A stretch of DNA of 64,000 nucleotides from a bacterium. Lineage in GTDB: Bacteria; Patescibacteriota; Minisyncoccia; Phycocordibacterales; UBA9973. Positions 1 to 18,485 of this stretch are shown here, one piece after another. The stretch lies in contig JAKAKW010000002.1 of NCBI GenBank assembly GCA_021824345.1, positions 22,552-86,551 of the forward strand. Direction: 5' to 3'. The notes under the pieces were generated by a model that had not been told where the DNA came from, did no database searches, and saw only the letters and a list, made by a program, of their open reading frames with translations. The translations under genes and the position numbers were made by a program. The number at the start of each line of letters is the position of its first letter. The first letter of the stretch is position 1.

Positions 1-93
1 GTTCTATATTATTTTTCCAGTTAAAGCCACCTTGCTCATCTTTTGTCAGTAAATCATCTACCTTGTCATATGTTTCTTCTTGCGGTGATATTT

Positions 94-915
94 TCATATT
101 GGAGAATAAGGATCAAAATCGTCATCCCTTCGGTTAGAATTGAACCGCTCGTTGAATATCTGTTCGCGGATCTTGTCTATGATAATATCTTTTGCAATTT
201 GAATATCAGTCATTCTCAGCTCTTCTAAAAAGTCATCAAGCAGATCGAACGATACAACATCAATTAGAAAATATTTGTTTATTTGGCGATCCTTTTTTAG
301 GTAAGAATAATCAACTCCTAGTTGAAAATTGTTTTCAATCTTTTCATACTTATTTGTGCTATCTTCGGCAACTCTGTATGTTCTTTTAAAAGAATCGAGA
401 ATGATTATAGGATAATCTAGACGATAGCTTTCATAATTGTAATTTTCAAGCGATATTAAGCTGTGAAGCGATCCATTCGTTCCATCATAAAAAATGTCTA
501 CATTTCCAGATTTGGCATTTAGTTTAGCAACAGGCTCATTCTTCAGATAGTGATGAGGTCTTGCTTTTAATTCTTCTGTTACCATAAGCTCGGTGTCTGC
601 ACAGTCTCTCATTATTTGATTTTCTTGAATAAGGTCTTTCGTTTTTTTCATATCCTTTTCCACGAACCACAATACATTGTCATTGTCTACATACTTACAC
701 TCTGCAAAAAGCCGGACAGAAAGTCTCTGACCGCTGTCGCCAATAGAAAATTTCTTTTGCGCCAATATATCAATTTCACGAGGTTTATCTGTAACAGGAT
801 CCGCATAATATTGTCCAACAGTTGCTTCCCACCCAAGAGACTCCAAATGTTTGGCAACCTTTAAATGAAAGCCGTTGCCACTTTTTTCTATTATTTTTAG
901 GATAGAATCATTCAT
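94..915 (-). CDS. hypothetical protein with a PD-(D/E)xK-like nuclease motif; candidate restriction endonuclease partner of the adjacent Vsr/MTase
   Basis: 273-aa ORF. Motif PREIDILAQ...RLFAECKYV matches the D...(D/E)xK spacing. Lies directly downstream of vsr on the same strand with a 13-bp gap. Confidence 0.4.
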   Translation of the reverse strand: MNDSILKIIEKSGNGFHLKVAKHLESLGWEATVGQYYADPVTDKPREIDILAQKKFSIGDSGQRLSVRLFAECKYVDNDNVLWFVEKDMKKTKDLIQENQIMRDCADTELMVTEELKARPHHYLKNEPVAKLNAKSGNVDIFYDGTNGSLHSLISLENYNYESYRLDYPIIILDSFKRTYRVAEDSTNKYEKIENNFQLGVDYSYLKKDRQINKYFLIDVVSFDLLDDFLEELRMTDIQIAKDIIIDKIREQIFNERFNSNRRDDDFDPYSPI

Positions 916-928
916 TTTTCTAGTTTAC

Positions 929-1372
929 TCATTCATCCCTTAGAAAATCTTCAATATTATTTAATGTGTTTCTTTCTGTATTTAATAAATCCCTTCCCCA
1001 AACTCTTAAAACTTTCCATCCCTCTCTCCGTAATTTTGCCCTGTTTCTTTTGTCTCGCGCAATATTGCCCTCTATCTTTTCCCGCCAATACTTCTTCGGC
1101 AACCTGTTCTTTTCTTTTGCAAAATTCCTTCCGTGCCAGAAATCTCCGTCTATGAATATGGCTATCTTCTTGCGGGGCAGGGCGATATCAGGGGTTCCAG
1201 GGGCTTTTTTGTAATGCTTTTGGAAATAAATCTTCCTTTTCCTGAGCTCCTTGAATGCTATAAGCTCCGGCCTTGTGTTTTTAGAGCGTATTTTCGACAT
1301 TATTTCGCTCCGCTTCTTTTTTGTGAATACGTCCATCGTTTTTCTGTCTTGCCAATGGCTATTGCCTTGCAT
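929..1372 (-). CDS. vsr: very short patch repair (Vsr) endonuclease
   Basis: 147 aa. Carries the Vsr hallmark FIDGDFWHG plus RSKNTRPE and LRREGWKVLRVW motifs. Transcribed divergently from a C5-MTase. Confidence 0.85.
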   Translation of the reverse strand: MQGNSHWQDRKTMDVFTKKKRSEIMSKIRSKNTRPELIAFKELRKRKIYFQKHYKKAPGTPDIALPRKKIAIFIDGDFWHGRNFAKEKNRLPKKYWREKIEGNIARDKRNRAKLRREGWKVLRVWGRDLLNTERNTLNNIEDFLRDE

Positions 1373-1386
1373 TTCGGTTTTTGTTC

Positions 1387-1407
1387 GGTATAATAGGATT
1401 ATATACC
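1387..1407. promoter_or_regulatory. imperfect palindrome GGTATAATAGGATTATATACC whose two halves each contain a TATAAT-like -10 box for the divergent vsr and MTase promoters; candidate operator for the LexA-like domain
   Basis: Read directly from the 55-bp divergent intergenic region. TATAAT at 1389-1394 on the plus strand and ATTATA at 1398-1403 (TATAAT on the minus strand). ATG of the MTase at 1427. Confidence 0.3.
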
Positions 1408-1426
1408 TAATATTTTTTATCGCAAT

Positions 1427-3010
1427 ATGGAAACGTTAACAAAAAAGCAGAAGCAGGTTCTTGATTTCATAAACGCATACAGGGCGGAGAACGGCATTTC
1501 GCCCACGATCGAGGAAATAAGAAAAGGCCTGAAGCTGAAGGCGGTTTCTACCGTGCACGAGCACGTGAATGCCTTGAAGGAGAAAGGATACATATCCGGC
1601 GAGGAAAATTCTGCAAGAAGCCTTGTTCCTAAAAAGGCGATAAAGACGATAGTTGAAATCCCCATAGTGGGAAGAATAGCCGCGGGCGACCCTATTGAGG
1701 CTATTGAAGACTTTCAGGACACTGTTTCCATATCCGATCCTTCAATAAAAAGCCACAAAGATTATTACGCCTTGAAAGTGGCAGGCGATAGCATGATAGA
1801 AGAGGGAATATTCGACGGAGATATAGTGGTGATAAAAAAGCAGTCTTCGGCGGAAAACGGGCAGACGGTTGTTGCTATCATTGATGATGAAAAAGCCACC
1901 TTGAAGAAGCTATACAGGGAAAAAGACCGATTCAGGCTGCAGCCGGCAAATTCAAGGATGAAGCCTCTTTTTAGGACGGAAGTAGAGGTAAGGGGAGTTG
2001 TGGCGCAAATAATCAGAAACTTGGCTAATGCGCAAAATACCGCAGAGGAGAAAAAGGTGACAACAAGCAAATTCAGGACAATTGATTTATTCGCGGGGAT
2101 AGGAGGAATAAGGATAGGGTTCGAGAAGGCAGGGTTTAATACCGTCTTTGCAAACGATTTCGATGAACAGTGCAAGAAAACCTATGATTTGAATTTTCCT
2201 ACTTCTAAATTGGTGGTGGAAGACATAAGAAAACTAGGAATAGAGGATCTACCTGATTTTGATTTTCTCTTGGGCGGGTTTCCTTGCCAGGCCTTTTCCA
2301 TAGCGGGGTATAGGCAGGGCTTCAAGGATGAAAAGGGAAGAGGAAACTTGTTTTTTGATATTGCCAGGATAATTGAAGCGCGGAAGCCTGAAGGGTTCCT
2401 GTTGGAAAACGTTAAGAATCTTAAAAGCCACGACAATGGCAAGACTTTCAGAGTGATAGAAAAAACCTTGAAAGAATTGGGATATCACATACAAACAAAA
2501 GTTTTGAATACCATGGACTACGGCAATGTTCCGCAGAATAGGGAAAGGATATACATAGTCGGGTTCAAGGATAAAAATCGCGCGGATAGGTTTTCCTTCC
2601 CCGAGCCCGTAAAGCTTAGGAGGAAAGTCACCCATTTATTGGATAAGAAAGTTCCAGAAAAATATTACTATAACGGCAAGCCTCTTTATGAAAAGCTCAA
2701 GCATTTTGTAAAAGAAGAGGGAAAAGTATATCAGTGGAGGCGCCAGTATGTGAGAGAAAATAAGAGCGGAGTATGTCCGACCTTGACGGCGAATATGGGA
2801 ATGGGGGGGCATAATGTGCCCATTATCAAAGACAAGAAAGGAATACGGAAGCTTACTCCCCGGGAGTGCGCCCGCATACAGGGATTCTCCGATGATTACA
2901 AGCTTCCCGAAATTGCGGATTCCGCGCTATATAAGCAATTAGGGAATTCTGTCAGCGTGCCTGTTATAGAAGCAGTAGCCAAGCAGATGAAGAAAGTTCT
3001 AAACGGCTAA
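1427..3010 (+). CDS. fusion protein: full-length LexA (winged-helix domain, Ala-Gly cleavage site, S24 Ser/Lys dyad) fused to a C5-cytosine DNA methyltransferase
   Basis: N-terminal 205 aa aligns with LexA: VGRIAAGDP (cleavage site), GDSM (Ser), KKLYR (Lys), VVAQIIRN. C-terminal domain carries MTase motifs I (DLFAGIGG), IV (GFPCQAFS), VI (ENVKNL) and X (QLGNSVSVPV). Confidence 0.85.
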   Translation: METLTKKQKQVLDFINAYRAENGISPTIEEIRKGLKLKAVSTVHEHVNALKEKGYISGEENSARSLVPKKAIKTIVEIPIVGRIAAGDPIEAIEDFQDTVSISDPSIKSHKDYYALKVAGDSMIEEGIFDGDIVVIKKQSSAENGQTVVAIIDDEKATLKKLYREKDRFRLQPANSRMKPLFRTEVEVRGVVAQIIRNLANAQNTAEEKKVTTSKFRTIDLFAGIGGIRIGFEKAGFNTVFANDFDEQCKKTYDLNFPTSKLVVEDIRKLGIEDLPDFDFLLGGFPCQAFSIAGYRQGFKDEKGRGNLFFDIARIIEARKPEGFLLENVKNLKSHDNGKTFRVIEKTLKELGYHIQTKVLNTMDYGNVPQNRERIYIVGFKDKNRADRFSFPEPVKLRRKVTHLLDKKVPEKYYYNGKPLYEKLKHFVKEEGKVYQWRRQYVRENKSGVCPTLTANMGMGGHNVPIIKDKKGIRKLTPRECARIQGFSDDYKLPEIADSALYKQLGNSVSVPVIEAVAKQMKKVLNG

Positions 3011-3571
3011 GCCTTTCATTTTTTTGAACAGGTTTTCCATATCCTTTAAATCATCCCAATATACGAACATGTTATCATTATTAAAAGACATGCCTTTAAA
3101 GTTTTTACCCGCGGCTAGTTCCTGAAAATCATTCCTAGAGGCCCAGCCCCTTCTTTCAACTCGTATGCCGTTAAGAGCCGGAAAATCAGAAAATATTTCT
3201 TCTCCCCGGCCTCCCAAGCTCCTGAAAAATCTCTGCCCGGTGCTGGATTTTTTCCAATGCACTTTATAGCCTATGAATAATCCCGCTTGCCTGTCTCCCT
3301 CGAATTCATTTTTTGAAATCAGCATGAAATACTGCACGTCTTTTACCTGTATCTTGGTTTTTGGGGCAAAATAAGAACCTCCGGAAAACTTTATTTTCTT
3401 TACATCCTGCCCCTCATCTGTGTTTGAGGTTCCGATATAAAAATCCCTGTTCAGTTCTATACCTATACCATGTTTCTCGCAGTCCATCTTAAAGGCCACT
3501 TCATTTAAAAGGCCTTTAGTAATATCCATCATGGCCTCTATATCATATCTTGTTTTTCCGCTTGAATACAA
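2999..3571 (-). CDS. hypothetical protein
   Basis: 190-aa ORF with no recognisable motifs. Overlaps the MTase 3' end by 12 nt on the opposite strand. Confidence 0.35.
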   Translation of the reverse strand: MYSSGKTRYDIEAMMDITKGLLNEVAFKMDCEKHGIGIELNRDFYIGTSNTDEGQDVKKIKFSGGSYFAPKTKIQVKDVQYFMLISKNEFEGDRQAGLFIGYKVHWKKSSTGQRFFRSLGGRGEEIFSDFPALNGIRVERRGWASRNDFQELAAGKNFKGMSFNNDNMFVYWDDLKDMENLFKKMKGLAV

Positions 3572-3618
3572 TGTAATAAAATTTTCATTTACCGCTTTCT
3601 TTGCCCAATTAAATTCCC

Positions 3619-4164
3619 CTATAATGCTTCCAGGGGGATTAAAATAGAGTTATCAAGGACAGATTGGCAATATTCCGAAATTTTTTTAAAACTAGTAAAT
3701 CCGTTTTTAATCGATCCGTTTCCCTGTGCGAGATTCTCAATCTTATTTGAGGAATTGGCTGATCCGCCTGCTACTCTCCTAAATTGGCCCAAGGATACGC
3801 TTTCATATCCGTAAGGTCCAAGTATTTCATTTACAATTTCAAATACTCTAGGCAGGGCGTTTTCTTCTTCAAAGAAAATGTTTGTGTCTTCCTTTATGCC
3901 CCGGTTTGCTATGTTATCAGGGATTTTTATTTTCTCATTATTCATTTGTCCCCGGGCCAGGAGATTATTATAACTATCCTGTCGGACGGGGAATATATGG
4001 GGAGTTTGCATAACAAGCTCCTTTTTATCAGGGAAATGAGATAGGATAGGGGCGCTTTTAATTATTGTTTTAATTATTGCGGTTCCAAGGCATTGAACCA
4101 TTACGATACCTTGACATATAGCATAAAATGCTGTATTATATTTATAATTTCTGATCGTTGACAA
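3619..4164 (-). CDS. hypothetical protein (doubtful; TTG start; overlaps small-peptide copy 1 on the opposite strand)
   Basis: 181-aa ORF. Its reading frame through the repeat element is not conserved in the other three copies (stop codon in copy 2). Confidence 0.2.
   Translation of the reverse strand: MSTIRNYKYNTAFYAICQGIVMVQCLGTAIIKTIIKSAPILSHFPDKKELVMQTPHIFPVRQDSYNNLLARGQMNNEKIKIPDNIANRGIKEDTNIFFEEENALPRVFEIVNEILGPYGYESVSLGQFRRVAGGSANSSNKIENLAQGNGSIKNGFTSFKKISEYCQSVLDNSILIPLEAL
3946..4044 (+). CDS. small ORF family member 1 (32 aa: LSPGQEIIITILSDGEYMGSLHNKLLFIREMR)
   Basis: One of four paralogous copies. Substitutions between copies fall mainly at third codon positions in this frame. TTG start. 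Confidence 0.45.
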   Translation: MSPGQEIIITILSDGEYMGSLHNKLLFIREMR

Positions 4165-4264: not shown

Positions 4265-5056
4265 ATGGAAAAAAATATCAAAGTGTTCGCTTTAGGAAGC
4301 GAAAATGATACTGTATTACTTGCCTTGAAACAGGCACTTTCTATAACCGGCATAACTTTCATTAAGGACGTTGTAGAATCCGATCTAGTGGTTTCAACAT
4401 CAATTCACGACGTTGGCAGGATATATAATCCTGAGAAAAACTACGCTGTTGTCTCGATGGGGGAAAAGAAAACTGCTACATTACCTCGTAATGTAGAAAT
4501 TTTCAACGGCCCGCCTAATCTTCTTGAAATTCTGAAATATATTTCTTCAATTGAGGTCTCTCAAGAAGAAGAAATACAAAAAGCAGAATTACTTCCTGAT
4601 GCAAAAAAGATTCTTGTTGTTGACGATACTCTTAGGCATCGAAATAGCGCAAAGGATCTATTAAAAGGTCATATTTTGACAATAGTTGATGGATACGAAC
4701 TGGCGCTTGACGCTCTTTCGTCGCAGAAGTTTGATGTCGTTCTTACAGATCTTAAACTTCCCATGAGCTCTTCCATACTTTCCCCGAACGTATTTAAATG
4801 GGGTGAGCTGGAAAATTATGGAGTGTTTATCATGTTAGAGGCTGCAAGGGTTGGTGTAAAGCACATAGCAATTGTCACTGACCTAAATCATCATCTTGAT
4901 CCTTTTTCCGCCGCTTTTGATCACTTTTCTCAGTATTTGTTTAATATTAACGGCTCGGATGCAGTCATGATTCATGCCAACTTGGTTGATAACAAAAAAG
5001 GAGAGACGGTAAAAGATTGGGGAGAAGCACTATCACGGGTTATGTCTGCTGAATAA
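4265..5056 (+). CDS. REC (CheY-like receiver) domain protein, no recognised output domain
   Basis: KKILVVDD...FDVVLTDLKLP receiver motifs in the C-terminal two thirds. Good AGGAG ribosome-binding site. Confidence 0.5.
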   Translation: MEKNIKVFALGSENDTVLLALKQALSITGITFIKDVVESDLVVSTSIHDVGRIYNPEKNYAVVSMGEKKTATLPRNVEIFNGPPNLLEILKYISSIEVSQEEEIQKAELLPDAKKILVVDDTLRHRNSAKDLLKGHILTIVDGYELALDALSSQKFDVVLTDLKLPMSSSILSPNVFKWGELENYGVFIMLEAARVGVKHIAIVTDLNHHLDPFSAAFDHFSQYLFNINGSDAVMIHANLVDNKKGETVKDWGEALSRVMSAE

Positions 5057-5093
5057 AGTGACTTGTTAAATAACTATTTTAGGAGGAACAGAC

Positions 5094-6221
5094 GTGAAAA
5101 GACAACTCAAAAAATTCCAACTAGAAGGTTTTCCATCCAAGAAAGAAATCATTAAAGCAGAAAAAGAAATCTTTCCATTAGTCTTATCTCCTTCCGTGAG
5201 TGCGCTCTGTAATCTGAGGTGTATATACTGTTATACTCGTGCTGGAAAAAAATTACCCGGAGAATTAGATTTTGCAGATCATGCGAAAGCAATCAATGAA
5301 TTTACTGAGCTTAATAGGCACAACAAATACATGATTATTGCAATGATGGGGGAAACTTTTTTGGATAAAAGTCTTTATAATGTAAAGGGAAAAAATATTG
5401 TTGATCCTATTACAAAAAAGAACTTTGTATCCAAGTTTCCCATTATAGATTATGCAAATAGATGCGGTATCAAGGTGGTCTTTTTCACAAACACTACCGT
5501 AATAAATAAAAAGATAGCCGAAGAACTAAAGGGTAAAAATGTTTCCATCATAGGTAAACTTAACACACTCAATCCTAAATTACAGGAAGAAATGACGGGC
5601 GGAAAAGGATTCTTTGTTGAAGAAGAATGGGTAGACTACGAATATTTGGTTGGAGGCAAGAAAAAAAAGATAAAAATCCCGAAAGGTCTTAATGCTTTGA
5701 TTGAAGCAGGATTTAACAAAATCAACGAAAGAGGCAATACAAGTTTAGGAGTTGATATAATCCTTACTGAAAAAAATTACAAGGATGTTCCTAAGGTTGT
5801 AGAATTTTGTCTAGAGAATTTTATTCATCCTGTTTTAGATACAATGCTTCCTATAGGATCAGCGGCAGAAAATTATTTTGAGCTGAAACTAAAAACGGAA
5901 ACAAACAGATGGCTATACAAAAGATTGCTTCAGCTGCTAGGTTCAAATTTTGCCGAGGCGGAATTTACCGGCAATCCATGTTCAACTTTTCGCGCCGGCA
6001 TTGCCTATGATAATTTCGGTAATGTGCGAATGTGTTGCGGAGGTGAAGCTGACGGTATAGGCAATATCAAAAGGGATAGCCTTAAGGATATTTATCAAAA
6101 AATGATTAGATACAAGGGGAATTTCCTGTCTAATTTAAGAGAAAATAAACTTGGCAATGACGTATTTCCTGAATGTCCAGTAGCAAATTATTTTCGAAAA
6201 GAATTAGAGAAAAGTATCTAA
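5094..6221 (+). CDS. radical SAM enzyme with a C-terminal Cys-rich SPASM/twitch-like domain
   Basis: CNLRCIYCY is a CxxxCxxC radical SAM motif near the N-terminus. The C-terminal segment NPCS...MCCGG...ECP carries auxiliary-cluster cysteines. Confidence 0.75.
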   Translation: MKRQLKKFQLEGFPSKKEIIKAEKEIFPLVLSPSVSALCNLRCIYCYTRAGKKLPGELDFADHAKAINEFTELNRHNKYMIIAMMGETFLDKSLYNVKGKNIVDPITKKNFVSKFPIIDYANRCGIKVVFFTNTTVINKKIAEELKGKNVSIIGKLNTLNPKLQEEMTGGKGFFVEEEWVDYEYLVGGKKKKIKIPKGLNALIEAGFNKINERGNTSLGVDIILTEKNYKDVPKVVEFCLENFIHPVLDTMLPIGSAAENYFELKLKTETNRWLYKRLLQLLGSNFAEAEFTGNPCSTFRAGIAYDNFGNVRMCCGGEADGIGNIKRDSLKDIYQKMIRYKGNFLSNLRENKLGNDVFPECPVANYFRKELEKSI

Positions 6222-6270: not shown

Positions 6271-6343
6271 ATATCTTATCTTGGAGGCGGTTCGATTCCT
6301 GTCTGGTCAAAACCCCTTGCTATTGTTAGCTTAGAGAAAATCC

Positions 6344-6448
6344 GTGTCCCCGGCTCAGGAGATTATTATAACCATCCTATCGGATGGGGAATATATGGGA
6401 AGTTTGTATAATAAACTGTTGTTAATAAAGGAAATGACAGCAATCTGA
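6344..6448 (+). CDS. small ORF family member 2 (34 aa: VSPAQEIIITILSDGEYMGSLYNKLLLIKEMTAI)
   Basis: GTG start preceded by the conserved upstream leader ttgttagcttagagaaaatcc shared with copy 3. Confidence 0.45.
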   Translation: MSPAQEIIITILSDGEYMGSLYNKLLLIKEMTAI

Positions 6449-6494
6449 AAAAGATTAGTCTAAGGCTGTAAGATAGCTGTATAATAATAGAGAG

Positions 6495-7277: not shown

Positions 7278-7330
7278 CTCGATCCCGGTCTGGTCAGAAT
7301 ACCTTGCCATTGTTAGCTTAGAGAAAATCC

Positions 7331-7435
7331 GTGTCCCGGCGGGAGGAGTTTATTATAACCATCCTTTCGGATGGGGAATATATGGGGAACTTATATAATA
7401 AATTGTTGTTTATAAATTCCCTGAAAAATTCTTAA
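7331..7435 (+). CDS. small ORF family member 3 (34 aa: VSRREEFIITILSDGEYMGNLYNKLLFINSLKNS)
   Basis: GTG start, same upstream leader as copy 2. Confidence 0.45.
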   Translation: MSRREEFIITILSDGEYMGNLYNKLLFINSLKNS

Positions 7436-11255: not shown

Positions 11256-11298
11256 TTCTTATAATAAACTCAACTAGAAATATCCTAATAACGAAATG

Positions 11299-13755
11299 TT
11301 AATTCACTAAAGCATATACCTTTTCTTTTAAACCCAGCACGAACCCGAAAAGCCCTCCGGGGTACTTGGCCTGGATGGCTTCCTTTTTTGCGTTCATATT
11401 AGGCAATAGGAATGCTTGCGACGATAGATTTTCCTCACCACTGGTTTTGTACTTCTCCATAATGTCACGAATGGCTTCGCCGATTTCCTTGCCATATTGG
11501 TCAAGTGTTTGAGTATTTGCGCGCATGAATTGTTTAACTCGGTCCTCACGAGTCAGAAGGGGAGCGTCAAATGCTATATGCGCTATAACGTCGAAAGCGT
11601 CACTATCCTCTAAGTTCTCTATGGATTTGATTAGTGGAATGTTCACGTGTTTAGTTTCTAGGTCGGTTATGAGTAGTTCGCGTTTCTCTGGGTCAAGCCA
11701 TATTTTACGGAGTTCATCAGTGGTGTGTACCATTTCGGTTATCCTTTCACCGGAATACTTGCGATACTCTGCTTTTGAGAGCTTGATGCCGTCGAATTCT
11801 ATCTCAACCTCCTCATCAATACTCACCTCAATGCCTTTGACTATAATTTTCTTAGGAGTACCCTTGAGCGGCTTCAGGCGGAATTCATAGGGTGTTTCTG
11901 CTTCTGATTCATGCGGTTCAAGACGCTTGCTCAAATTTTTGTAATCGGCGTGCTCAATTTGTACAGACACTTCACCATTTGTCGGCAAACCGAATATCCT
12001 AAATAGACCGTCGTTGTCGGTTTTACCGATCTTCTCCCAGCGCCCGAGCTTAACTTTCACCACAGCGCTTGCCACATGCTCTTCTGTCTTGTTATTGACC
12101 ACTACACCTGTGATTAGTTTATCAAAAGGCGGTATCGGTTCTTCTGGGGTCGTAGGAGGCACTGGCGGTTGAGGAGCTACGTCCCACTCGTCCAGGAGCC
12201 GGGTAGCGTTTGTAAAATCAATAACGCGGAAGAAACCCTTACCTTCAGAAAGACGAGAACCTCGTCCTAATATCTGTTTAAACAGCACCCGTGAAGCTAT
12301 AGGACGCATAAAGACGATATTTTGTACGTGGGGGATGTCTACCCCAGTAGAAAGCAAATCTACTGTTGTTGCAACGACTGGTAAGGTACGTTCTTTGTCT
12401 CGAAAGGCAGTTAAGTCATCTTTGTCCTCAGCTACAATACGGGTAGCGTAGTCCTCGCGTCCCTTTAGTTCGTTTAATTTATCTTGTACCGCCTGTGCGT
12501 GTGCCATATCAACACAGAAAACGATAGTTTTTCCATAAGGGTTTGTTTCGTCAATCAGCTCAACCACCTTTTTTGCCAGCAGACCTATTTGCTCGGGAAT
12601 AGTGACGGCGCGTTCGTATTCTGATGGTTCGTAGAAATCTTTAATATCTTCTGGTTCAACTTCATCGTCGTATATAATTTCTTCTGCTGCGGCGACGGAG
12701 AGCCCTTTACGGTACAGATTCGTAGTGACCTTGTAGATTTTGTACGGTACGAGATAGCCGTCTTCAATAGCTTGCCCTAGGGAATACTGGAATACCGGTT
12801 CACCGAAGTATTCGTATACGTCAATATTGTCTTCCCGGCGTGGAGTTGCTGTCATGCCGAAGTGTACAGCAGAAGTGAAGTGATCAAGAATTTCTCCCCA
12901 GTCACCAAATCGCGAGCGGTGACATTCATCAATGACAATCAGATCAAAAAAGTCAGCTGGTATCTGCTTGTAGAGATCATTCGCGAAGAGCGTCTGGTAT
13001 GTTGAGAAATAAACGTCCCGGTTGCGATTGAAGTCACCACCTTCTATCTTTGCGCGGCCTTCGCCAAATGGTTCAAAATCTCGGCTATAGGCATCATCGC
13101 GCAGAATTATACGGTCACAAAGAAAAAGGATACGATGCATCGTTTTTGATTTCATCAATTTCCAAACAATTTGAAAGGCAGTGAATGTTTTACCAGTGCC
13201 GGTGGCCATTGTAAGAAGTGTTGTACGATTTCCTTTGATAATGTTTCTAACTACTGCATTGATCGCGGTTTCTTGATATGAACGCGGGCGCTTGGTACCA
13301 CTAATGTGAAGCGGATATTCGAGTGCAGACAACTTAGCATTTTCTAACCCTTTCCATTCTATGTATGCTTTATACATATCTTCAGGCGATAGGAAAGAAG
13401 AAACTGACTCTGGCGCTTTATTTGTGCGCCGATCATATAGGTATGAGGACTTGCCGTTAGATATATAGGCAAATGGTACGTCAAGACGCTCAGCATAATT
13501 TTGCACCTGTTTAATATGTTTCATCAAGTCCTCGTCCTCTGCTTTTGCTTCAAGCACTGCTACTGTAACTTGGTTGAACTGGACCACATAATCAGCAAAG
13601 AGCGAAGTCGGAAGACGTTTATATTCTTCTCCTTCAACGTAAAAACGATCGTCAGAAATAGGGTAGTTGCGAAGAATATATTCCTCTTTCCACCCTGCCT
13701 CGTGTATTTTGGGATCTATTATTTTGACTCTTGTGTCGTCCTCTGAAAAGGTCAT
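11299..13755 (-). CDS. hsdR: type I restriction enzyme R subunit (HsdR) with a C-terminal extension
   Basis: N-terminal PD-(D/E)xK (ADYVV...LEAKA). Helicase motifs TGTGKT and DECH. C-terminal region has a transthyretin/CarbopepD-reg-like segment (TDNDGLFRIFGLPTNGEVSVQ) and an EcoEI_R_C-like tail. Confidence 0.85.
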   Translation of the reverse strand: MTFSEDDTRVKIIDPKIHEAGWKEEYILRNYPISDDRFYVEGEEYKRLPTSLFADYVVQFNQVTVAVLEAKAEDEDLMKHIKQVQNYAERLDVPFAYISNGKSSYLYDRRTNKAPESVSSFLSPEDMYKAYIEWKGLENAKLSALEYPLHISGTKRPRSYQETAINAVVRNIIKGNRTTLLTMATGTGKTFTAFQIVWKLMKSKTMHRILFLCDRIILRDDAYSRDFEPFGEGRAKIEGGDFNRNRDVYFSTYQTLFANDLYKQIPADFFDLIVIDECHRSRFGDWGEILDHFTSAVHFGMTATPRREDNIDVYEYFGEPVFQYSLGQAIEDGYLVPYKIYKVTTNLYRKGLSVAAAEEIIYDDEVEPEDIKDFYEPSEYERAVTIPEQIGLLAKKVVELIDETNPYGKTIVFCVDMAHAQAVQDKLNELKGREDYATRIVAEDKDDLTAFRDKERTLPVVATTVDLLSTGVDIPHVQNIVFMRPIASRVLFKQILGRGSRLSEGKGFFRVIDFTNATRLLDEWDVAPQPPVPPTTPEEPIPPFDKLITGVVVNNKTEEHVASAVVKVKLGRWEKIGKTDNDGLFRIFGLPTNGEVSVQIEHADYKNLSKRLEPHESEAETPYEFRLKPLKGTPKKIIVKGIEVSIDEEVEIEFDGIKLSKAEYRKYSGERITEMVHTTDELRKIWLDPEKRELLITDLETKHVNIPLIKSIENLEDSDAFDVIAHIAFDAPLLTREDRVKQFMRANTQTLDQYGKEIGEAIRDIMEKYKTSGEENLSSQAFLLPNMNAKKEAIQAKYPGGLFGFVLGLKEKVYALVN

Positions 13756-13775
13756 ATTTTTATAAATTGCTATTT

Positions 13776-14456
13776 CTATCCTTCGCTTGGTTTTTTCTTT
13801 GATTCAGCGAGTGCTTTTAATTTTTCTGAACGAGTGCGCCGGTTTTCTCGATCAACATACCAGTCATCCACTAATTGTTCAATTAGGCCAATTAGAAGCT
13901 GGGCTTCTTCTGGCTCAACTTCAATGATGACGTTTATATCTTTTTCCATGTGTGCTCCAATATTCCCTACGCTTCTCACAGCATCAATACTAGTCCATGT
14001 GTCCGGATCAACTTTTTCTTCCAGAGCGTCAATCTCATCTTTCAAACGTGCCATTTTAATGTTCCAGAAGTCGCGTATCATCCCCTGGAGACATCGTCGT
14101 GCAAGCGTAGCCGATGCCTTTGGGCTTAGATCACGTATACGGCACGCTTCGTAGTAATTTTCTTGTATAGGTTTCGGTATATACTCTGGAAGTACTTTTG
14201 CCTCTGACTCCGGGAGTAAGCGCCACGTCTTTAGAGCTGCAGATTTTTTCCATTCACCATATTGCCAATAGGTACCGGTAAGCTCTGCAACAAGTGTTAG
14301 CTGTTGGCATTCTTTGTTAGGGCAAGTGACAGCAGAAATTCCGAAGCCAATATCCCCAAGGGTAGGTTTGGATATATTAATCTTATACCACATCGAATCT
14401 CGATTGGGATCAGTGATTGTTGTATGTCTTCCGCAAAATGGGCAAGTGTAGTTCAT
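13776..14456 (-). CDS. DUF4145-like protein with an N-terminal zinc ribbon, common in type I R-M loci
   Basis: CPFCG...CPNKEC zinc ribbon. Helical C-terminal domain with ARRCLQGMIRD. Confidence 0.5.
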   Translation of the reverse strand: MNYTCPFCGRHTTITDPNRDSMWYKINISKPTLGDIGFGISAVTCPNKECQQLTLVAELTGTYWQYGEWKKSAALKTWRLLPESEAKVLPEYIPKPIQENYYEACRIRDLSPKASATLARRCLQGMIRDFWNIKMARLKDEIDALEEKVDPDTWTSIDAVRSVGNIGAHMEKDINVIIEVEPEEAQLLIGLIEQLVDDWYVDRENRRTRSEKLKALAESKKKPSEG

Positions 14457-14467
14457 GAATAAATTTA

Positions 14468-16735
14468 TTATTTAATAAATGCTTGGCCTAGCACTGATGG
14501 ACGAAACCTAGCAAAATACTTTGCTTGTTTTGAAAACAATTCCCCTAACTCCTTGGACATGTCAAACATCTTGTCCAGAGTGTTTGCAATATACTTTTGT
14601 TTTTCAACGTCAAGTTTTCCATCCTTAAATGGAATTGGTATCTCAACTTTTCCAAGATTAGTGCGGCTAATTCTCTTTCGTGAAGAACCTGTGACCATTT
14701 GGTATACCTGAGATCGTGCATCATCTGAGTTTAGGAAGTAGTTAATGTAACGTGGGTCATAATCTTGTCCCAAGCGGACGATAGTACAATCAACCGCTGT
14801 GAGCATACGATGCCCTGTTTTTGGTACGATACATGATCGTCCGACCGGGTCAGGGAGTCGAGATACAAGAATATCTCCAGGCAAAATCTCTGTACAGTGT
14901 AAGCGCTGAAAAGTTTGCTCATTTACAAAACGCTTAGTTTCCTTATCTCGAAAGTCAATCACTCCTATGTTTCCGGTCTGTACCAGCCAATACCCTTGAG
15001 AAGATTGATCTTTACTCTCAATCCAGTTGCCGTCGTTGAAGAATGTACAAATGTCTGCAAGTGCAAAGCGTTCAACATCAGTATTGGAAAATGTTCTTTC
15101 TAATTCACTCTTAAGTGATGCTAATATTAATTTAATTTCTTTCTGCTTATCCTCTATTTTTATAATGATTTCAGCAGGCGGTAAGAGTACTTCATTCTCA
15201 ACACTACTAGGGTTCTTGGGTGAAATATCCCAGCCGTGCTCCTTTATGGTATCCACTGAAACGATCCACGATGTGTTAGATACCTCGCGACGTTTCCATT
15301 TCTCGAATATATCTTGTAAGTGCTCATCCTGTACCGTCTTCTTTTTCGTAAATTTACCTTGTACTTCGCCGTACCATATTTCCTTTGTCGCGCCTGTTTT
15401 CTCAAAGAAGACAAGGTTCGTTTTTACGCCCGCGCCCATCTGTGAGAATGTACCTTGCGGAAGTGAAATTATAGCGGAAACATTGAATTTTGTTAGAAGT
15501 TCTTCACGAATACGAGCCGTTGCGCCACCTCCGAACATAATGTTTCCTTCAGGTAAAATAATGCCACAGCGCCCTCCATTTTTAAGGCGTTTCATCACAT
15601 ATTGCAACGCAAGACCTTCAGTTGCCCCTATTTGGATAGGATAGTTGTTTTGTACTGCTTTTGATTCTTCCGCACCGAACGGTGGATTGGTAAGAATTAC
15701 ATCAACTTTCTCGCTTTCCGGCATATTATGCACGTCTTCCATGAATGTGTTGGTGCGTGTAAGGTTTGGAACGAGTATGTGATGGAGAATAAGGTTCATC
15801 GTACCTATGAGAAACGGTAGCGGTTTCTTTTCCTGCCCATATAGGGTGGAAGTTTGGAGAGTATTCCATGCACGCACGTCTTTCGCAGAGTTCTCGAACA
15901 TGTGGTTAAAACTCTCAACGAGGAAACCGCCAGAGCCAACAAATGGGTCCAGAACTGTTTCGCCTAACTTTGGGTTGACGATGCTTACCATAAGGCGTAT
16001 AAGCGGTCTTGGACTATAAAACTCTCCGGACCAGCCGCCCTCGCTACCCATCGCCTGCAGTATTTCTTCGTATACCTGTGAGAGCAGGTTTGTGTCTTGA
16101 AAATGATGCTTCTCTATTTTATCTAGCACATCGATAACATCCAACAAGTTGTGAGCAGAACGGACACGATTGCCCGGCAGTTCGCGAAAAATCTCTCCGA
16201 TTTTATCTCGGCGTGGATCTCCTTTCAGTGCTTGAAGATAAGGGAAGAGTTTTTGGTTTACAAAATGCATTAATTCATCCTTATCTTTCCAATCTTTCTT
16301 CGCCCATGCTGACCACTGGTACTCTGCATCGATGACCGGCTTGTACTTACGGCCTTCTGCCTCCTCGAGTTCTTTTAGTTGCGTCTCAACGCCTTCAAAT
16401 ATTTTTAGGAAGAGGATCCACGAGAACTGCTCGATATAATCCTTTGCCCCTACACCATCGTCACGACGAAGAATATCGCAAACATGCTTAATGTCCGCCT
16501 TTGTTAAACTCTCACGTTTAGAAACCATTTCTTTCTCTACTTTATGCGCCATCTCTGGGATTTTACCTTCAACGAATGTTTTTAGATCGCTTGTGGAAAT
16601 GCGCCATGTCCCCCCTACCTTCTTCGCAGATAGTTTTTTATTGTGAATGTAACGGAAAGCAGTCCGCTCACTCACGTGGAGCATATCTGCAACTTCTTCC
16701 AAGGTATAAAGGCGATCAGATGTATCTTTTGTCAT
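14468..16735 (-). CDS. hsdM: type I R-M HsdM N6-adenine methyltransferase fused to a single HsdS target-recognition domain; N-terminal excisionase/MerR-like HTH
   Basis: Motif I DPFVGSGGFL and motif IV NPPFG. C-terminal Methylase_S-like TRD. N-terminal LYTLEEVADMLHVSERTAFRYI HTH. Start probably MTKDTS at 16735; the ORF is open up to 16795. Confidence 0.8.
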   Translation of the reverse strand: MTKDTSDRLYTLEEVADMLHVSERTAFRYIHNKKLSAKKVGGTWRISTSDLKTFVEGKIPEMAHKVEKEMVSKRESLTKADIKHVCDILRRDDGVGAKDYIEQFSWILFLKIFEGVETQLKELEEAEGRKYKPVIDAEYQWSAWAKKDWKDKDELMHFVNQKLFPYLQALKGDPRRDKIGEIFRELPGNRVRSAHNLLDVIDVLDKIEKHHFQDTNLLSQVYEEILQAMGSEGGWSGEFYSPRPLIRLMVSIVNPKLGETVLDPFVGSGGFLVESFNHMFENSAKDVRAWNTLQTSTLYGQEKKPLPFLIGTMNLILHHILVPNLTRTNTFMEDVHNMPESEKVDVILTNPPFGAEESKAVQNNYPIQIGATEGLALQYVMKRLKNGGRCGIILPEGNIMFGGGATARIREELLTKFNVSAIISLPQGTFSQMGAGVKTNLVFFEKTGATKEIWYGEVQGKFTKKKTVQDEHLQDIFEKWKRREVSNTSWIVSVDTIKEHGWDISPKNPSSVENEVLLPPAEIIIKIEDKQKEIKLILASLKSELERTFSNTDVERFALADICTFFNDGNWIESKDQSSQGYWLVQTGNIGVIDFRDKETKRFVNEQTFQRLHCTEILPGDILVSRLPDPVGRSCIVPKTGHRMLTAVDCTIVRLGQDYDPRYINYFLNSDDARSQVYQMVTGSSRKRISRTNLGKVEIPIPFKDGKLDVEKQKYIANTLDKMFDMSKELGELFSKQAKYFARFRPSVLGQAFIK

Positions 16736-16851
16736 GCTGGGTATGATAGTCCAAGATAAATATTTTGTCAAGTTTTGGCAAGTATTGTAATACACTTGCC
16801 ATTTTATGACAACTTTATATTTGACATGTTCCCGTCTTTTTATTTTCTAGA

Positions 16852-17342
16852 TCTCCCGCGCGCGTAGGAAAAATCCGATTTTATCCCAGTACTATTTTTG
16901 CTTTTCTACTTTGTTACTACTAGCTATTTCTTCATTTTACCCCTATTCGGATTGAATTTTGGTTTTCGGGCAGTTTTTTCAGGTAACCCGGGGGTATTTT
17001 TTCTTGCCCTGACAGCTCTAAGACGTTCCCGGCATTCCCTGAGTTTTTATTTTCCCTCACGCGCGCGAGAAAATCCAAATCTATCACAGTCATATTTTCA
17101 GGATTTTTCTTTGTTATCATTAGGTATTTTCCCATTCTACCCCAATTGTGATTGGCAGTGCCGTTTTTTGTCTCTTTTTGGACGAAATCTTTTTTAGTTG
17201 AGTTATAATTTATAGATCACCTCGCGCGCCCGCGTGCGTAGAATAGAAATTTATGAAAGAGCTATTTTTGTGTTTTACGTTGTAATTACTAGATATTTCT
17301 CGTTTTTTGCCTATTTCAATTGAATTCTTGCAATTAAAGAGC
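16852..17342. repeat. three degenerate direct repeats of about 150-200 bp, each beginning with a CGCGCG box in otherwise AT-rich DNA
   Basis: Units begin near 16855, 17060 and 17222 (cgcgcgcgtaggaaaaatcc / cacgcgcgcgagaaaatcc / cgcgcgcccgcgtgcgtagaatagaaa) and share downstream tracts such as ctatttttg...ttactactag. Confidence 0.5.
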
Positions 17343-18281
17343 ATAACCAGGAGTTTTTGCGTAGGCCAACTGCCTCGTTCCGCCGTCCGCGAGCTCGTTC
17401 AGGGGGTGCTTGGTCATCTGCGATCGCAGGTGCTCCGCGCTGGCTGCCAGGTATATCGTGGTGGTCTTTATGTCGCTATGTCCCATCATTTTGGATAGGG
17501 AATAGATGTCGCACCCGCCCTCAAGCATCAGGGTTGCGAAAGTATGTCTCAGCTTGTGGACCGTAAACCTTATCTTCGATACCTCCCGTATTCTGTCTGT
17601 CAACACTTTCAGCCCGGAGTCTGTGAATCCCATGTTGCATCTGGATGACACGAAGAATTCCGGGCACGTTCTCCCTAGTTTTTTCCTTTCTTCCAGGTAT
17701 CTTTTCAGCGTCTGCGCCAGCGTGTAGCTCATCGGTATTATCCTATCCTTACTCCCTTTCCCTTGCCTTACGAAAATGGTCAGGTTTTCCAGGTCCACGT
17801 CCGTAAATTTAAGGTTTAGAAGCTCTTGTTTGCGCAGGCCGGCGAAGATGAAGGTAGAAAAGATCGCATGGTTGCGATAGCGCAGAAACTTTGTCCCATA
17901 AGGATAATTGTAAACAACCTCCAACAGCCGGAGCGCGTCCTGTTTGGTCAGCTTCGGCGGGAGCTTCTTCTCCAGCTTTGGCTTTTCAATGTCTATCACC
18001 GGATTCTTTTCCATGTAGCCCTGCTTTATGCACCAGCGGAAGAATACCAGCAGGGTTTTGTGGTAAATGATGAACGTATTTGTGGACCAGCTGCGCTGGA
18101 TCCGTCCGTAATAGAACAGCTCTCGCACATTCTCGTCCGTGACCTGGCTGATTTCCTTTACGCCGGCGGATCGGCAGTAATAGTTTATGATGCTCTTGTA
18201 TCTTTTAATGGTGGCTTTTGAATAGCCGCGAATGGAATCTGAATAGTCGCAAAATCTTTGCGCTAAAATTTCCATGTCCAT
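17334..18281 (-). CDS. tyrosine site-specific recombinase/integrase (XerC/XerD-like)
   Basis: R...HxLRHTFAT...Y catalytic motifs (HKLRHTFATLML, TTTIYL). Adjacent to tRNA-Lys. Confidence 0.85.
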   Translation of the reverse strand: MDMEILAQRFCDYSDSIRGYSKATIKRYKSIINYYCRSAGVKEISQVTDENVRELFYYGRIQRSWSTNTFIIYHKTLLVFFRWCIKQGYMEKNPVIDIEKPKLEKKLPPKLTKQDALRLLEVVYNYPYGTKFLRYRNHAIFSTFIFAGLRKQELLNLKFTDVDLENLTIFVRQGKGSKDRIIPMSYTLAQTLKRYLEERKKLGRTCPEFFVSSRCNMGFTDSGLKVLTDRIREVSKIRFTVHKLRHTFATLMLEGGCDIYSLSKMMGHSDIKTTTIYLAASAEHLRSQMTKHPLNELADGGTRQLAYAKTPGYAL

Positions 18282-18412
18282 ATGTTTGTTTGGCGTTCGG
18301 CGGAGCGTTTTATCCTGGAAAATTCTTTTTGGCCTCTCGACCTGTTTACTGCGGGAACTGGTCTAGGAAACAGCCCTATTTTCCAAAATACCCTTATTTA
18401 GCTTATATAATG

Positions 18413-18485
18413 TCCGCCCACTCGGGATCGAACCGAGGACCTTCTCCTTAAAAGGGAGCTGCTCTACCATCTGAGCTATGGGCGG
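18413..18485 (-). tRNA. tRNA-Lys (anticodon UUU)
   Basis: Cloverleaf folded by hand from the reverse complement: acceptor CCGCCCA/TGGGCGG, anticodon loop CUUUUAA, T-arm CTCGG-TTCGATC-CCGAG. No encoded CCA. Confidence 0.8.

Follow-up and report, generated by a model that had tools for sequence, protein, structure and literature searches.

Genomes of CPR/Patescibacteria are roughly 1 Mb in size, and to our knowledge little is known about how these bacteria acquire and exchange genes. Decayed pathogenicity islands are "anchored" in their hosts, having kept one att side and the integrase and lost the other att. Vibrio VCR arrays, found in sedentary chromosomal integrons, consist of numerous, closely similar co-oriented repeats of ~100–170 nt between short cassettes (toxin-antitoxin pairs, NUDIX, aadA-like and unannotated genes) and lie beside a tyrosine recombinase. 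Islands integrated into tRNA genes by tyrosine integrases, including a class with an anticodon-loop sublocation, have been catalogued by Islander (PMC4383910). Here we analyze a CPR locus in which ~25 kb of the genome is foreign defense and accessory DNA at one tRNA gene. We consider it reasonably probable that this ~25.4-kb acquired island is composed of the decayed remnant of an integrative element, belonging to a recombinase family designated int1, on its tRNA side and a repeat-delimited cassette array on its distal side.

Results

The AT-rich block between tRNA-Lys and core genes is compositionally foreign

The window (the whole 64,000-nt stretch analyzed; negative positions lie beyond its left edge) contains most of an AT-rich block of 25,443 nt (25.4 kb) that spans approximately −7,030 to 18,411, with 7.0 kb outside the window. 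A preliminary description had set the size at 18.4 kb or more. The GC content of the block is 0.385 compared to 0.477 and 0.478 in the flanks, and tetranucleotide distances are 2.4–4.2 within the block and 1.1–1.9 outside it; by both measures the block is foreign in composition. The reported rise from 35% to 50% GC near position 17300 is not a single step: GC is 0.30–0.44 over 1–11.2 kb, 0.42–0.44 across the type I restriction-modification (R-M) genes at 11.3–16.8 kb, 0.49 in the int1 gene and 0.46–0.55 past tRNA-Lys.

The island extends from tRNA-Lys(UUU) to the core genes x184-ROK-...-polA. The 11.4 kb of core genes inspected beyond it includes ROK (a core CPR gene), PolA, RuvB and also ruvC. 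The same arrangement is found in all 11–15 assemblies or contigs that carry flank or island proteins. The nearest genome with the same flanks, L170, has the order uvrB-PMT2-tRNA-Lys-Fic-x215-polA-T2SSE, with 2 kb between the flanks and no int gene. UvrB and PMT2 are 70% and 52% identical between the two loci, and x217, PolA and T2SSE follow the island in the same orientation with 50, 67 and 72% identity to L170. The genes between the flanks differ, with Fic in L170 and x184-ROK-x315-x267 here. The comparison with related genomes yields the same flanks without an integrase, but only at 52–72% protein identity. A UvrB scan of species-representative contigs for an empty site returned relatives of at most 70% identity that lack the tRNA-Lys synteny. 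PMT2 homologues fall from 100% straight to 70% with no close sister genomes between, and the contig of the 70% homologue is 3.5 kb long and breaks off within the tRNA. No close relative yielded an empty site or an excised circle, and no ancestral intact state was observed at this locus. Composition and, at its distance, the L170 arrangement point to the AT-rich block as genuine horizontally acquired DNA in a CPR/Patescibacteria chromosome. The block is made up of two unlike parts, a tRNA-proximal segment of ~10 kb and a distal cassette array of ~15.4 kb.

The tRNA-proximal part resembles an integrase element

The features of the tRNA-proximal part are as follows.

18412–18485 (−), tRNA-Lys(UUU) (ttt), intact, the integration target on the attL side (ARAGORN; Rfam RF00005, 65.6 bits)
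18410–18455 (−), counterpart of the family att identity block, which starts in the anticodon loop (CCTTTTAAGG...) and reaches 2 nt past the tRNA 3′ end
18282–18409 (−), element-derived P′ arm and int leader, with motifs AAATAAGGGTATTTTGG at 18383–18402 and GACCAGTTCCCGCAGTAAACAGGTC at 18339–18363
17334–18281 (−), int1, 315-aa tyrosine recombinase (Pfam Phage_integrase, 2.7e-29; N-terminal SAM_4)
16847–16963, 17049–17164 and 17214–17334 (+), three imperfect ~120-nt direct repeats, each opening CTC(N)CGCGCGCG (repeat search)
14468–16795 (−), HTH_17-HsdM-HsdS fusion (Pfam)
13776–14456 (−), DUF4145 protein (Pfam; PADLOC PD-T7-4 match)
11299–13755 (−), HsdR (Pfam)
11299–16795 (−), the type I R-M module formed by these genes, GC 0.42–0.44 (Pfam)
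9624–11255 (−), unannotated 543-aa gene, GC 0.30–0.34
8380–9468 (−), unannotated 362-aa gene, GC 0.30–0.34

ARAGORN, Rfam and Pfam confirm the order first described, tRNA-Lys(UUU), then a XerC/D-like recombinase, then cargo; the distance from the tRNA 3′ end to the start of int1, which has the orientation of the tRNA, is exactly 130 nt. Homology with "half-site" loci begins at the anticodon loop (alignment A1). Conservation across 16 loci of different hosts covers the P′ arm and int leader but not the sequence that precedes the tRNA, and AAATAAGGGTATTTTGG and GACCAGTTCCCGCAGTAAACAGGTC each occur once in the window. XerA and XerD are the nearest solved structures to int1; the catalytic R..K..HxxR..H..Y residues align in the PDB comparison (XerA, 4a8e) and are intact, and the protein is 100% identical across assemblies. 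The host-like GC of int1 (0.49) fits long residence and would fit a host gene too. The tRNA/int1 boundary is a true attL-type junction from a family of site-specific integrative elements: relatives of the integrase share the order tRNA-Lys, ~127 nt, int, and have it closed by direct repeats of the tRNA 3′ part.

The ~120-nt repeats occupy the stretch that separates the stop of int1 from the start of hsdM and have no Rfam match; a weak homologue lies directly after int1 in L091 (nhmmer, E = 1e-5). The 362-aa and 543-aa genes (8380–11255) are the last before the repeat array and match nothing in Pfam, NCBIfam, PADLOC or PHROGs. Ten unannotated cargo proteins scanned had no PHROG match, and the Pfam content of the cargo is defense and metabolic. 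BLASTP, Pfam, PADLOC and PHROGs detected neither paralogy nor hidden recombinases among the unannotated cargo proteins, and this island copy contains no mobilization genes.

int1 belongs to a family of tRNA-integrating elements

At least 305 metagenomic relatives of int1 were found, the best 80 of which are 63–80% identical to it. A tRNA is located within 140 nt of int1 in 35 of these 80, and in 17 of the 35 it is tRNA-Lys(ttt), 102–137 nt upstream on the same strand. The family resides at several different tRNAs, and the neighbors of int1 differ between loci. The relatives' elements are 3.4–10.5 kb long and bounded by 44–48-nt direct repeats that start in the anticodon loop and reach the 3′ end of the tRNA (L091, L092, L098, L101, L115 and L122); L095, L143, L119 and L111 have equivalents that are shorter or derive from Thr/Lys(ctt). 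The motifs AAACAGGTC and TATTTTGG are conserved in their P and P′ arms. At 38 of the 80 loci a second recombinase, int2, is found either close to attR or immediately upstream of a half-tRNA site beside int1, and in L128/L129 it is 9.9 kb from int1. Among the 13 tRNA-Lys(ttt) relatives that have 6 kb or more of downstream sequence, six have no att copy in the available sequence; the family must therefore include elements of more than 10 kb or further decayed ones, and its norm varies. A ~195-nt insertion in the relatives' tRNA-Thr was considered as a group I intron and set aside, having no Rfam match.

Cargo of the relatives consists mostly of defense genes and includes AbiGi, AAA+subtilase (S8 protease), DUF4145 and R-M genes; L118 carries a relaxase, a coupling protein and ArdC. 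In these relatives, a ~45-nt attP segment with the identical sequence of the tRNA between anticodon loop and 3′ end recombines with the tRNA gene, and the arrangement int2-attP-int1 becomes tRNA(attL)-int1-cargo-int2-attR upon integration. A full-text literature search found no description of the int1/int2 family.

Neither attR nor int2 was detected at this locus

The absence of another att copy from the window, stated in the preliminary description, was confirmed: no second tRNA-Lys 3′ end occurs elsewhere in it. That description had also counted a lack of att duplication within a reasonable distance against a tRNA-integrated island, and none was found within 37 kb. Smith-Waterman searches of both strands over the 37 kb that follow the tRNA downstream gave only null-range scores. 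The P-arm motif is absent from the island and from the 11.4 kb of core genes past its end, and the 82-kb extended sequence contains no P-arm-like cluster. When six int2 proteins were searched by tblastn against the window and L003, int1 was the sole match. The attL features are complete at this locus. No attR, arm motif or int2 was found in the window, L003 or L172. The tRNA T-arm has an interrupted 9+7-nt match within a HAD gene (L003, 16667–16690), and hsdM has an 11-nt match to GGCGGACATTA (E = 2.1); both were judged to be chance. Lacking an att duplication, a P-arm motif and a partner recombinase, the island is therefore not an intact excisable one.

Logan contig breaks within the tRNA and at −7032, 7379 and 8291 were considered first as co-existing variants or att copies. 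The latter three were rejected as variants because they fall inside copies of the ~170-nt repeat described below, and k-mers that other organisms share in their tRNAs can account for the break there.

The distal part is a repeat-delimited cassette array

Eleven ~170-nt repeats, all in one orientation, occur in the distal 15.4 kb. Each contains a conserved micro-ORF of 15–17 codons, and together they delimit ~ten cassettes of one to six genes. The features within the window are as follows.

8195–8358 (+), repeat copy 11, the innermost, micro-ORF MGSLYNKLLFIKEMR
7453–8091 (−), single-gene cassette, unannotated 212 aa
7270–7444 (+), repeat copy 10
6495–7277 (+), single-gene cassette, ANT-like nucleotidyltransferase (AadA_C/NTP_transf_2) that scores under every NCBIfam cut-off for ANT
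6280–6450 (+), repeat copy 9
4265–6221 (+), cassette with a 263-aa protein (weak receiver-domain match) and a radical SAM enzyme
5094–6221 (+), the radical SAM gene, weak SPASM-maturase and viperin-like matches
3888–4059 (+), repeat copy 8
1–3887 (strand not assigned), large cassette, reaching −583 outside the window (Pfam, NCBIfam, translations), which includes a partial x226
2999–3571 and 3619–4011, two unannotated genes of the large cassette
1427–3010, LexA-S24-Dcm fusion (Pfam/NCBIfam)
929–1372, Vsr (Pfam/NCBIfam)
94–915, 273-aa gene with a PD..ECK nuclease-like motif (translation, by inspection)

Seven more repeat copies and six more cassettes lie to the left of the window (L172, 11397–17882). 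All copies are on one strand and within the AT-rich block, the outermost exactly on the GC boundary, at a spacing of 0.5–4.7 kb. The micro-ORF peptide M-G-S-L-Y-N-K-L-L-F-I-K-E-M is conserved, with 6, 4 and 18 variable sites at codon positions 1, 2 and 3. Genes run in both orientations and some cassettes are multi-gene. The cargo comprises a toxin-antitoxin pair, NUDIX, dCMP deaminase, a radical SAM enzyme, the ANT-like gene and a second R-M-like module formed by the 94–915 ORF, Vsr and the LexA-S24-Dcm fusion. The two R-M systems, radical SAM gene and ANT first reported on the low-GC side are thus all present, the last as an ANT-like gene.

Homologous ~170-nt repeats with a conserved peptide occur in L095, where two of them flank a cassette beside an int1 element. 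They are absent from 78 of the 80 int1 relatives, ten long int1 loci have no analogous arrays, and two pattern scans of viral contigs gave zero matches. Homologues of the ANT-like gene sit in arrays of small accessory genes that lack the repeat.

Known identities for the repeat were rejected. Single-stranded DNA folds of three copies on both strands gave several small hairpins with no spanning palindrome (z −1 to −2.6), unlike attC, and inspection of the repeat alignments revealed no RYYYAAC/GTTRRRY box pair. Derivation from the int1 att site was dismissed on null-range alignment scores. The repeat has no Rfam family and was not called by a consensus promoter scan, and one copy only was called terminator-like. 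On the alignments, the array-building mechanism has no detectable relationship to the int1 att site; the array may have grown via repeated recombination at the ~170-nt repeat. The array could pre-date the int1 element or belong to it; in L095 one repeat copy is inside an att-bounded element.

Discussion

The island is real and composite, and probably immobile. Of the original proposal of a tRNA-integrated island, the attL-type junction and the foreign composition stand, and so, as far as a relative of 52–72% protein identity can show, does the absence of int and block from the same flanks; the integrity of the island as an excisable unit and its uniformity do not. The tRNA-proximal ~10 kb is probably what is left of an element from the large CPR integrative family; here attL and int1 alone remain. 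Their absence suggests that attR and int2 were lost here through deletion or overwriting, which would leave the element unable to excise by its own pathway and fixed in the population.

An intact, still excisable element whose attR is farther off or too diverged to recognize is very improbable and already largely refuted. It draws on relatives with int2 or att near or beyond 10 kb from int1, as in L128/L129, and on the six of 13 comparable loci without an att copy, but it has to contend with the null-range scores over 37 kb, the missing arm motifs and the ROK, polA, ruvB and ruvC genes past the block, which are syntenic with the integrase-less relative. Could the recombinase instead be a resident Xer-type host gene beside tRNA-Lys, and the block have been gained by flank homologous recombination or transformation at a hot spot? 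The Xer-like architecture, best matches to XerA/XerC/XerD, host-like GC and missing attR are compatible with this idea, as is the variable inter-flank position in L170 (Fic). We nevertheless regard it as quite unlikely: int1 scores far under the NCBIfam equivalog cut-offs (XerA 183 versus 220, XerC 173 versus 335, XerD 163 versus 330), its family occurs at several tRNAs with att duplications and wholly different neighbors, and L170 retains the tRNA and flanks without such a gene. A shufflon-type invertase for the type I specificity gene, or a prophage remnant, is suggested by a tyrosine recombinase that directly adjoins an hsdMS gene. This reading is scarcely credible and was rejected, given the single S region, the lack of inverted repeats of 22 nt or more in 1–18.6 kb save a palindrome beside the tRNA, the family evidence for tRNA integration and the negative PHROG scan of ten cargo proteins.

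The whole block could alternatively be an integron-like platform, an end recombinase with cassettes captured singly at the ~170-nt repeats. Eleven co-oriented copies strictly confined to the island, cargo typical of chromosomal integrons (a toxin-antitoxin pair, NUDIX, an aadA-like gene, small unannotated genes) and the repeat-flanked cassette beside int1 in L095 argue for it. The repeats, however, lack an attC-like single imperfect hairpin and the box pair and do not significantly resemble the int1 att site; the closest copy lies 9 kb away from int1, which scores under the integron-integrase cut-offs (TIGR02249 112 versus 265; PRK15417 75 versus 435); gene orientation is mixed, and nearly all int1 relatives lack the repeat. 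These points make an integron-like platform unlikely. A related speculation, to which we give a small chance, is that the ~170-nt repeats are recombination or junction sites of an undescribed CPR cassette-accretion system, a functional analogue of the chromosomal integron, that works alongside or was seeded by twin-recombinase int2-attP-int1 tRNA-integrating elements. The reading we prefer remains the decayed int1-family element joined to a distal cassette array.

The tRNA-associated island as first stated is a largely ordinary result. The int1 family is of wider interest: its small integrative elements have a ~45-nt tRNA att site that can be defined precisely, and their attP lies between two recombinases, which is unusual. 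Its loci, at least 305 in number and with R-M and Abi cargo, offer a concrete, testable route for defense-gene traffic between CPR lineages, and int2-attP-int1 elements appear to be an undescribed, widespread vehicle for defense genes in reduced genomes. The repeat-delimited array with its micro-ORF is a second way of organizing accessory genes and can be screened for across CPR genomes.

The island shares clustered R-M genes, a PD-T7-4-like DUF4145 protein, toxin-antitoxin pairs and nucleotide-modifying enzymes with defense islands and integrative mobilizable elements; its relatives have AbiGi, AAA+S8 protease, ArdC, relaxase and coupling protein, and this copy is without mobilization genes. 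It resembles VCR arrays in its co-oriented repeats, comparable cargo and adjacent tyrosine recombinase, but its repeats carry a micro-ORF and are not attC-like hairpins, its cassettes can be multi-gene, with genes in either orientation, and no integron-type integrase or attI was identified. Like decayed islands, it has kept attL and the integrase, lost the other att and is fixed in all sampled genomes; its integrase differs in being intact rather than a pseudogene. The closest parallel to Islander islands is the tyrosine integrase just 3′ of a tRNA, with accessory and defense cargo of foreign composition. The relatives also share the restored tRNA and the 44–48-nt 3′ fragment, from the anticodon loop, displaced to the far end, whereas that fragment is absent at this locus, and the host is a CPR bacterium. 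Intact family members differ further from Islander islands in having two recombinases that flank attP and come to lie at opposite ends of the element after integration.

The tRNA-Lys-int1 junction

The following features lie at the tRNA end of the AT-rich block.

18412-18485, minus strand: tRNA-Lys(ttt) (ARAGORN; Rfam, 65.6 bits)
17334-18281, minus strand: int1, a 315-aa tyrosine recombinase (Phage_integrase, 2.7e-29, plus an N-terminal SAM_4 domain)
16847-17334, plus strand: three ~120-nt direct repeats, imperfect and spaced at 200 and 168 nt, occupying the gap between the int1 stop and the hsdM start

The tRNA and int1 share a strand, with 130 nt between the tRNA 3' end and the int1 start codon, and ARAGORN, Rfam and Pfam confirm the co-oriented tRNA and recombinase of the preliminary description. 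The nearest solved structures to int1 are XerA (4a8e, 5hxy) and XerD, and int1 aligns with them at the catalytic residues R, K, HxxR, H and Y. NCBIfam bit scores are below the cut-offs for XerA (183 vs 220), XerC (173 vs 335) and XerD (163 vs 330). Each ~120-nt repeat opens with CTC(N)CGCGCGCG; none matches Rfam, and a weak homologue of one lies immediately 3' of int1 in the related locus L091 (1225-1315, E=1e-5).

The int1 family

A metagenome contig scan recovered at least 305 int1 relatives, the best 80 of which are 63-80% identical over the full length and have practically no neighbours in common with the window. A tRNA lies within 140 nt of int1 in 35 of these 80 loci. In 17 of the 35, as in the window, a same-strand tRNA-Lys(ttt) precedes int1 by 102-137 nt; the other upstream tRNAs are tRNA-Lys(ctt) (n=2) and tRNA-Thr (n=11), and five loci carry an antisense tRNA-Lys(ctt) just downstream of int1. 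Seven of the 13 tRNA-Lys(ttt) loci with at least 6 kb of downstream sequence contain a direct repeat of the tRNA 3' part.

Direct repeats of the tRNA 3' part at tRNA-Lys(ttt) loci (locus, length, identity, distance downstream)
L091, 46 nt, 100%, 10.1 kb
L092, 45 nt, 100%, 10.1 kb
L098, 48 nt, 98%, 9.6 kb
L101, 46 nt, 91%, 9.3 kb
L115, 44 nt, 98%, 7.0 kb
L122, 44 nt, 100%, 10.4 kb
L095, 21 nt, 100%, 8.0 kb

The same pattern occurs at tRNA-Thr and tRNA-Lys(ctt) loci (L143, L119/L121, L111, L097). In every case the att repeat runs from the anticodon loop (CCTTTTAAGG) to a point 0-4 nt beyond the tRNA. An alignment of 16 loci across the tRNA-int1 interval places the start of conservation at the anticodon loop and defines invariant TATTTT and GACCAC.TCC....AAACAGGTC motifs in the P' arm, the element-derived flank of the tRNA-side junction (attL); the window carries every conserved feature of this alignment. 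On the side of the far junction (attR), the P arm has AAACAGGTC ~100 nt and CCAAAATA ~55 nt upstream, and attR is followed by a terminator hairpin similar to that after the unoccupied tRNA-Lys of L170, a distant relative with the same flanks. The att repeats, the conserved arms and the sub-cut-off Xer scores together argue that the family comprises site-specific tDNA integrases and not Xer dimer resolvases.

A second tyrosine recombinase, int2, is present in all att-bounded tRNA-Lys elements of at least 7 kb except L095, and is seen in 38 of the 80 loci. Its copies share 46-89% identity with one another and 27-33% with int1, and lie 0.2-1.5 kb before attR. At ~15 of the 38 loci (L094, L099, L102, L113, L114, L116, L118, L123, L137, L141, L146, L149, L150, L152 and L161), int2 is immediately upstream of int1, and the ~380 nt between them hold only the 3' half of a tRNA of Lys or Cys type. 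For some of these junctions, on contigs of 43-192 kb, no full tRNA occurs within 10 kb. The int2-half tRNA-int1 arrangement has the features of an attP-like or tandem-array junction, and the layout of intact elements is thus attL-int1-cargo-int2-attR. Among the cargo genes of the relatives are AbiGi, an AAA ATPase with an S8 subtilase, DUF4145 and type I/IIG R-M genes, and in L118 genes for ArdC, a TrwB/TraG-type coupling protein and a MobA relaxase surround the int2-att'-int1 junction.

Other arrangements were seen among the relatives. tRNA-Lys(ctt) is present in two or three complete copies in L111 (3257-10993) and L097 (7200-8681), with one further, partial copy in L111; conserved flanks of 134-169 nt with P-arm motifs accompany the copies, and the two loci resemble tandem arrays in which int1-type elements duplicate the entire tRNA. 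In tRNA-Thr loci L119-L121, L138, L140, L144, L157, L164 and L168, a conserved ~195-nt insertion (GACCGTGGCG..CGCCCGAACGACTGACAAGGG..GATACAGTCTA) apparently splits the tRNA, ~50-320 nt upstream of int1. ARAGORN missed these interrupted genes, and Rfam gave no group I intron match. The same loci, together with L134, L145, L165 and L143, have a separate tRNA-Thr 5' half another 150-170 nt upstream. LOOT RNA (RF03000) scores above gathering a few kb downstream of int1 in L138 (14193-14313) and L157 (12509-12628).

Extent and composition of the block

The reverse complement of the window is identical across 28,281 nt to NCBI contig DAICBP010000002.1 (GCA_027428375.1). Homologues of UvrB and PMT2 put the organism within Patescibacteria/CPR (Parcubacteria/Paceibacterota-like), with at most 70% identity to anything else. 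Contigs L003 and L172, through which the window was extended leftward, show that AT-rich DNA runs 7.0 kb beyond its left edge with genes for an SDR, dCMP deaminase, NUDIX, BrnT/CopG, a HAD hydrolase and several proteins without assigned function. It ends between x234b and x184. Past this boundary lie ROK, x315, x267, x217, PEMT, PolA, T2SSE, GtrA, RuvB, YebC and RuvC genes at GC 0.45-0.55; ROK has homologues 45-64% identical throughout Patescibacteria and is a core gene. From the tRNA 3' end to the x184 boundary the block measures 25,443 nt, which extends the earlier minimum of 18.4 kb.

The block is foreign-looking in composition, with a GC of 0.385 between a left flank of 0.477 (11.4 kb) and a right flank of 0.478 (45.5 kb), and a tetranucleotide distance to bulk of 2.4-4.2 vs 1.1-1.9 elsewhere. 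The GC contrast toward the tRNA is as first described; the single step from 35% to 50% near 17300 is replaced by graded values: 0.30-0.44 from 1 to 11.2 kb, 0.42-0.44 for the type I R-M genes, 0.49 for int1 and 0.46-0.55 past the tRNA. Outside the island, ~31500-35500 also deviates in tetranucleotide usage (3.2 and 2.6 vs the 1.1-1.9 baseline) at normal or high GC.

L170 (GCA_030650315.1) has the order uvrB-PMT2-tRNA-Lys(ttt), terminator, Fic, x215, polA, NYN, T2SSE and lacks an integrase. Its UvrB and PMT2 are 70% and 52% identical to those of the window, and its proteins share 50%, 67% and 72% identity with x217, PolA and T2SSE beyond the island, which lie in the same relative orientation. 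This shared order suggests that the tRNA-Lys-polA neighbourhood is ancestral; the interval is ~2 kb in L170 vs ~30 kb here. The comparison with related genomes thus yields integrase-free flanks from a distant genome (52-72% identity), and the collections searched contained no close sister: the next PMT2 homologue (70% identical) is on a 3.5-kb contig that carries PMT2-PGbind and ends after the 5' part of tRNA-Lys. All 11-15 contigs with exact flank or island proteins have the same arrangement, with no empty-site variant among them.

The direct repeat of the tRNA-Lys 3' end expected of an integrated island was not found across 37 kb downstream. Patterns of 22 and 16 nt with 2-3 mismatches gave nothing relevant in the window, and the 22-nt pattern had no match in L003. 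The top same-strand blastn-short match to the tRNA region was only 11 nt (E=2.1). Smith-Waterman scores for the 48-nt att equivalent on both strands as far as ruvC were 20-22 vs 17-26 for shuffled queries. In tblastn searches with six int2 proteins, int1 alone matched in the window and L003. Neither arm motif recurs in the examined sequence of this genome, and the 82-kb extended sequence has no P-arm-like cluster.

A repeat-delimited cassette array

Repeat finding, pattern searches and an nhmmer profile identified eleven copies of a ~170-nt repeat (rep), all intergenic.

L172, plus strand: rep at 11397-11538, 12968-13140, 13765-13933, 14804-14977, 15872-16019, 16381-16550 and 17714-17882
Window, plus strand: rep at 3888-4059, 6280-6450, 7270-7444 and 8195-8358

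The other 57 kb examined, outside the AT-rich block, contains no copy, and the outermost copy abuts the x184 stop codon exactly at the GC boundary. The repeats bound cassettes of, in order, x234b and HAD; BrnT-CopG; x234a; x149-NUDIX; an empty interval; dCMP deaminase-SDR; x226, a nuclease-like gene, Vsr, LexA-Dcm and two genes without assigned function; a receiver-like gene and radical SAM; the ANT-like gene; and unk212. Every rep holds a conserved ORF of 15-17 codons (MGSLYNKLLFIKEM...), with 6/4/18 variable sites at codon positions 1/2/3 in the ten copies first identified (the eleventh left out). Short Logan contigs from two samples terminate within rep copies; the repeats, in place of strain heterogeneity, explain these assembly breaks.

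L095 carries two homologous copies on the minus strand (7844-7947 and 9279-9382), in the same orientation relative to int1 as here, with ORFs MKGLYNQLMFIKALQRDC and MKSLYNQMMFIKALQK; the pair flanks one unassigned gene and a cytidine/dCMP-deaminase-like gene. Rep was absent from viral contigs and from the remaining int1-family and other loci retrieved, and ten other long int1 loci have no comparable array. Rep has no Rfam match and no significant similarity to the int1 att region. Its folding is not attC-like, and a consensus promoter scan did not call it.

Cargo

The two R-M systems, radical SAM enzyme and ANT of the preliminary description were recovered, the last as an AadA_C/NTP_transf_2 protein scoring far below all ANT cut-offs. 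The type I module consists of an HTH_17-HsdM-HsdS fusion, DUF4145 and HsdR. The second, R-M-like group comprises Vsr, a LexA-S24-Dcm fusion and an adjoining 273-aa ORF in which a PD..ECK nuclease-like motif was seen by inspection.

1427-3010, plus strand: LexA-Dcm fusion, 527 aa, beside Vsr

The LexA half is complete (DNA-binding domain and S24 autopeptidase), clears the TIGR00498 lexA cut-off and is fused to a C5 cytosine methyltransferase. The architecture is rare, because only ~4 of the 150 top matches in a set of 1.84 billion representative proteins cover both halves. P0241 is 66% identical over the full length, and a 78% identical homologue directly follows int1 in L096. Through this fusion, control of the methylase or of R-M may be tied to DNA damage. 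Homologues of the ANT-like protein (48-56% identical) lie in other CPR contigs within runs of small co-oriented accessory genes, among them HAD, cyclase, GATase, NUDIX, metallo-beta-lactamase and cupin genes. In one such contig (L178, 780-9201), several intergenic spacers share a motif like AACATCGCCCAGCCCGGCCAG.

Origin of the island

The best-supported interpretation is a composite island. Of the proposed tRNA-attB insertion, the attL-type junction, int1 and the foreign block stand; attR and a single uniform element do not. The tRNA-proximal ~10 kb, with int1, the three ~120-nt repeats, type I R-M and two unassigned genes, would be, in size and layout, an int1-family element from which int2 and attR have been lost. 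Excision by its own pathway is no longer expected, consistent with the element being found in all assemblies and with an int1 GC close to that of the host. The distal 15.4 kb (two-thirds) is probably a cassette array built on a different repeat, unlike the int1 att.

An intact island with a distant attR is essentially excluded, since core genes lie beyond the block. A housekeeping Xer gene that happens to adjoin an unrelated variable region is disfavoured by the int1 family evidence and by NCBIfam scores under the Xer cut-offs. An integron-like platform is improbable, as the defining integron features tested negative, and a shufflon or prophage is rejected.

Comparison with known islands

Full-text literature searches and a check of the Patescibacteria T4SS paper turned up no account of the int1 family or rep; given incomplete coverage, this counts as weak evidence for novelty. 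An integrase-bearing island at a tRNA gene is of the textbook kind, as in the Islander definition (PMC4383910). What sets this case apart is its CPR host, the family's twin-recombinase attP module, a stranded state with attL alone, and the repeat array with its micro-ORFs.
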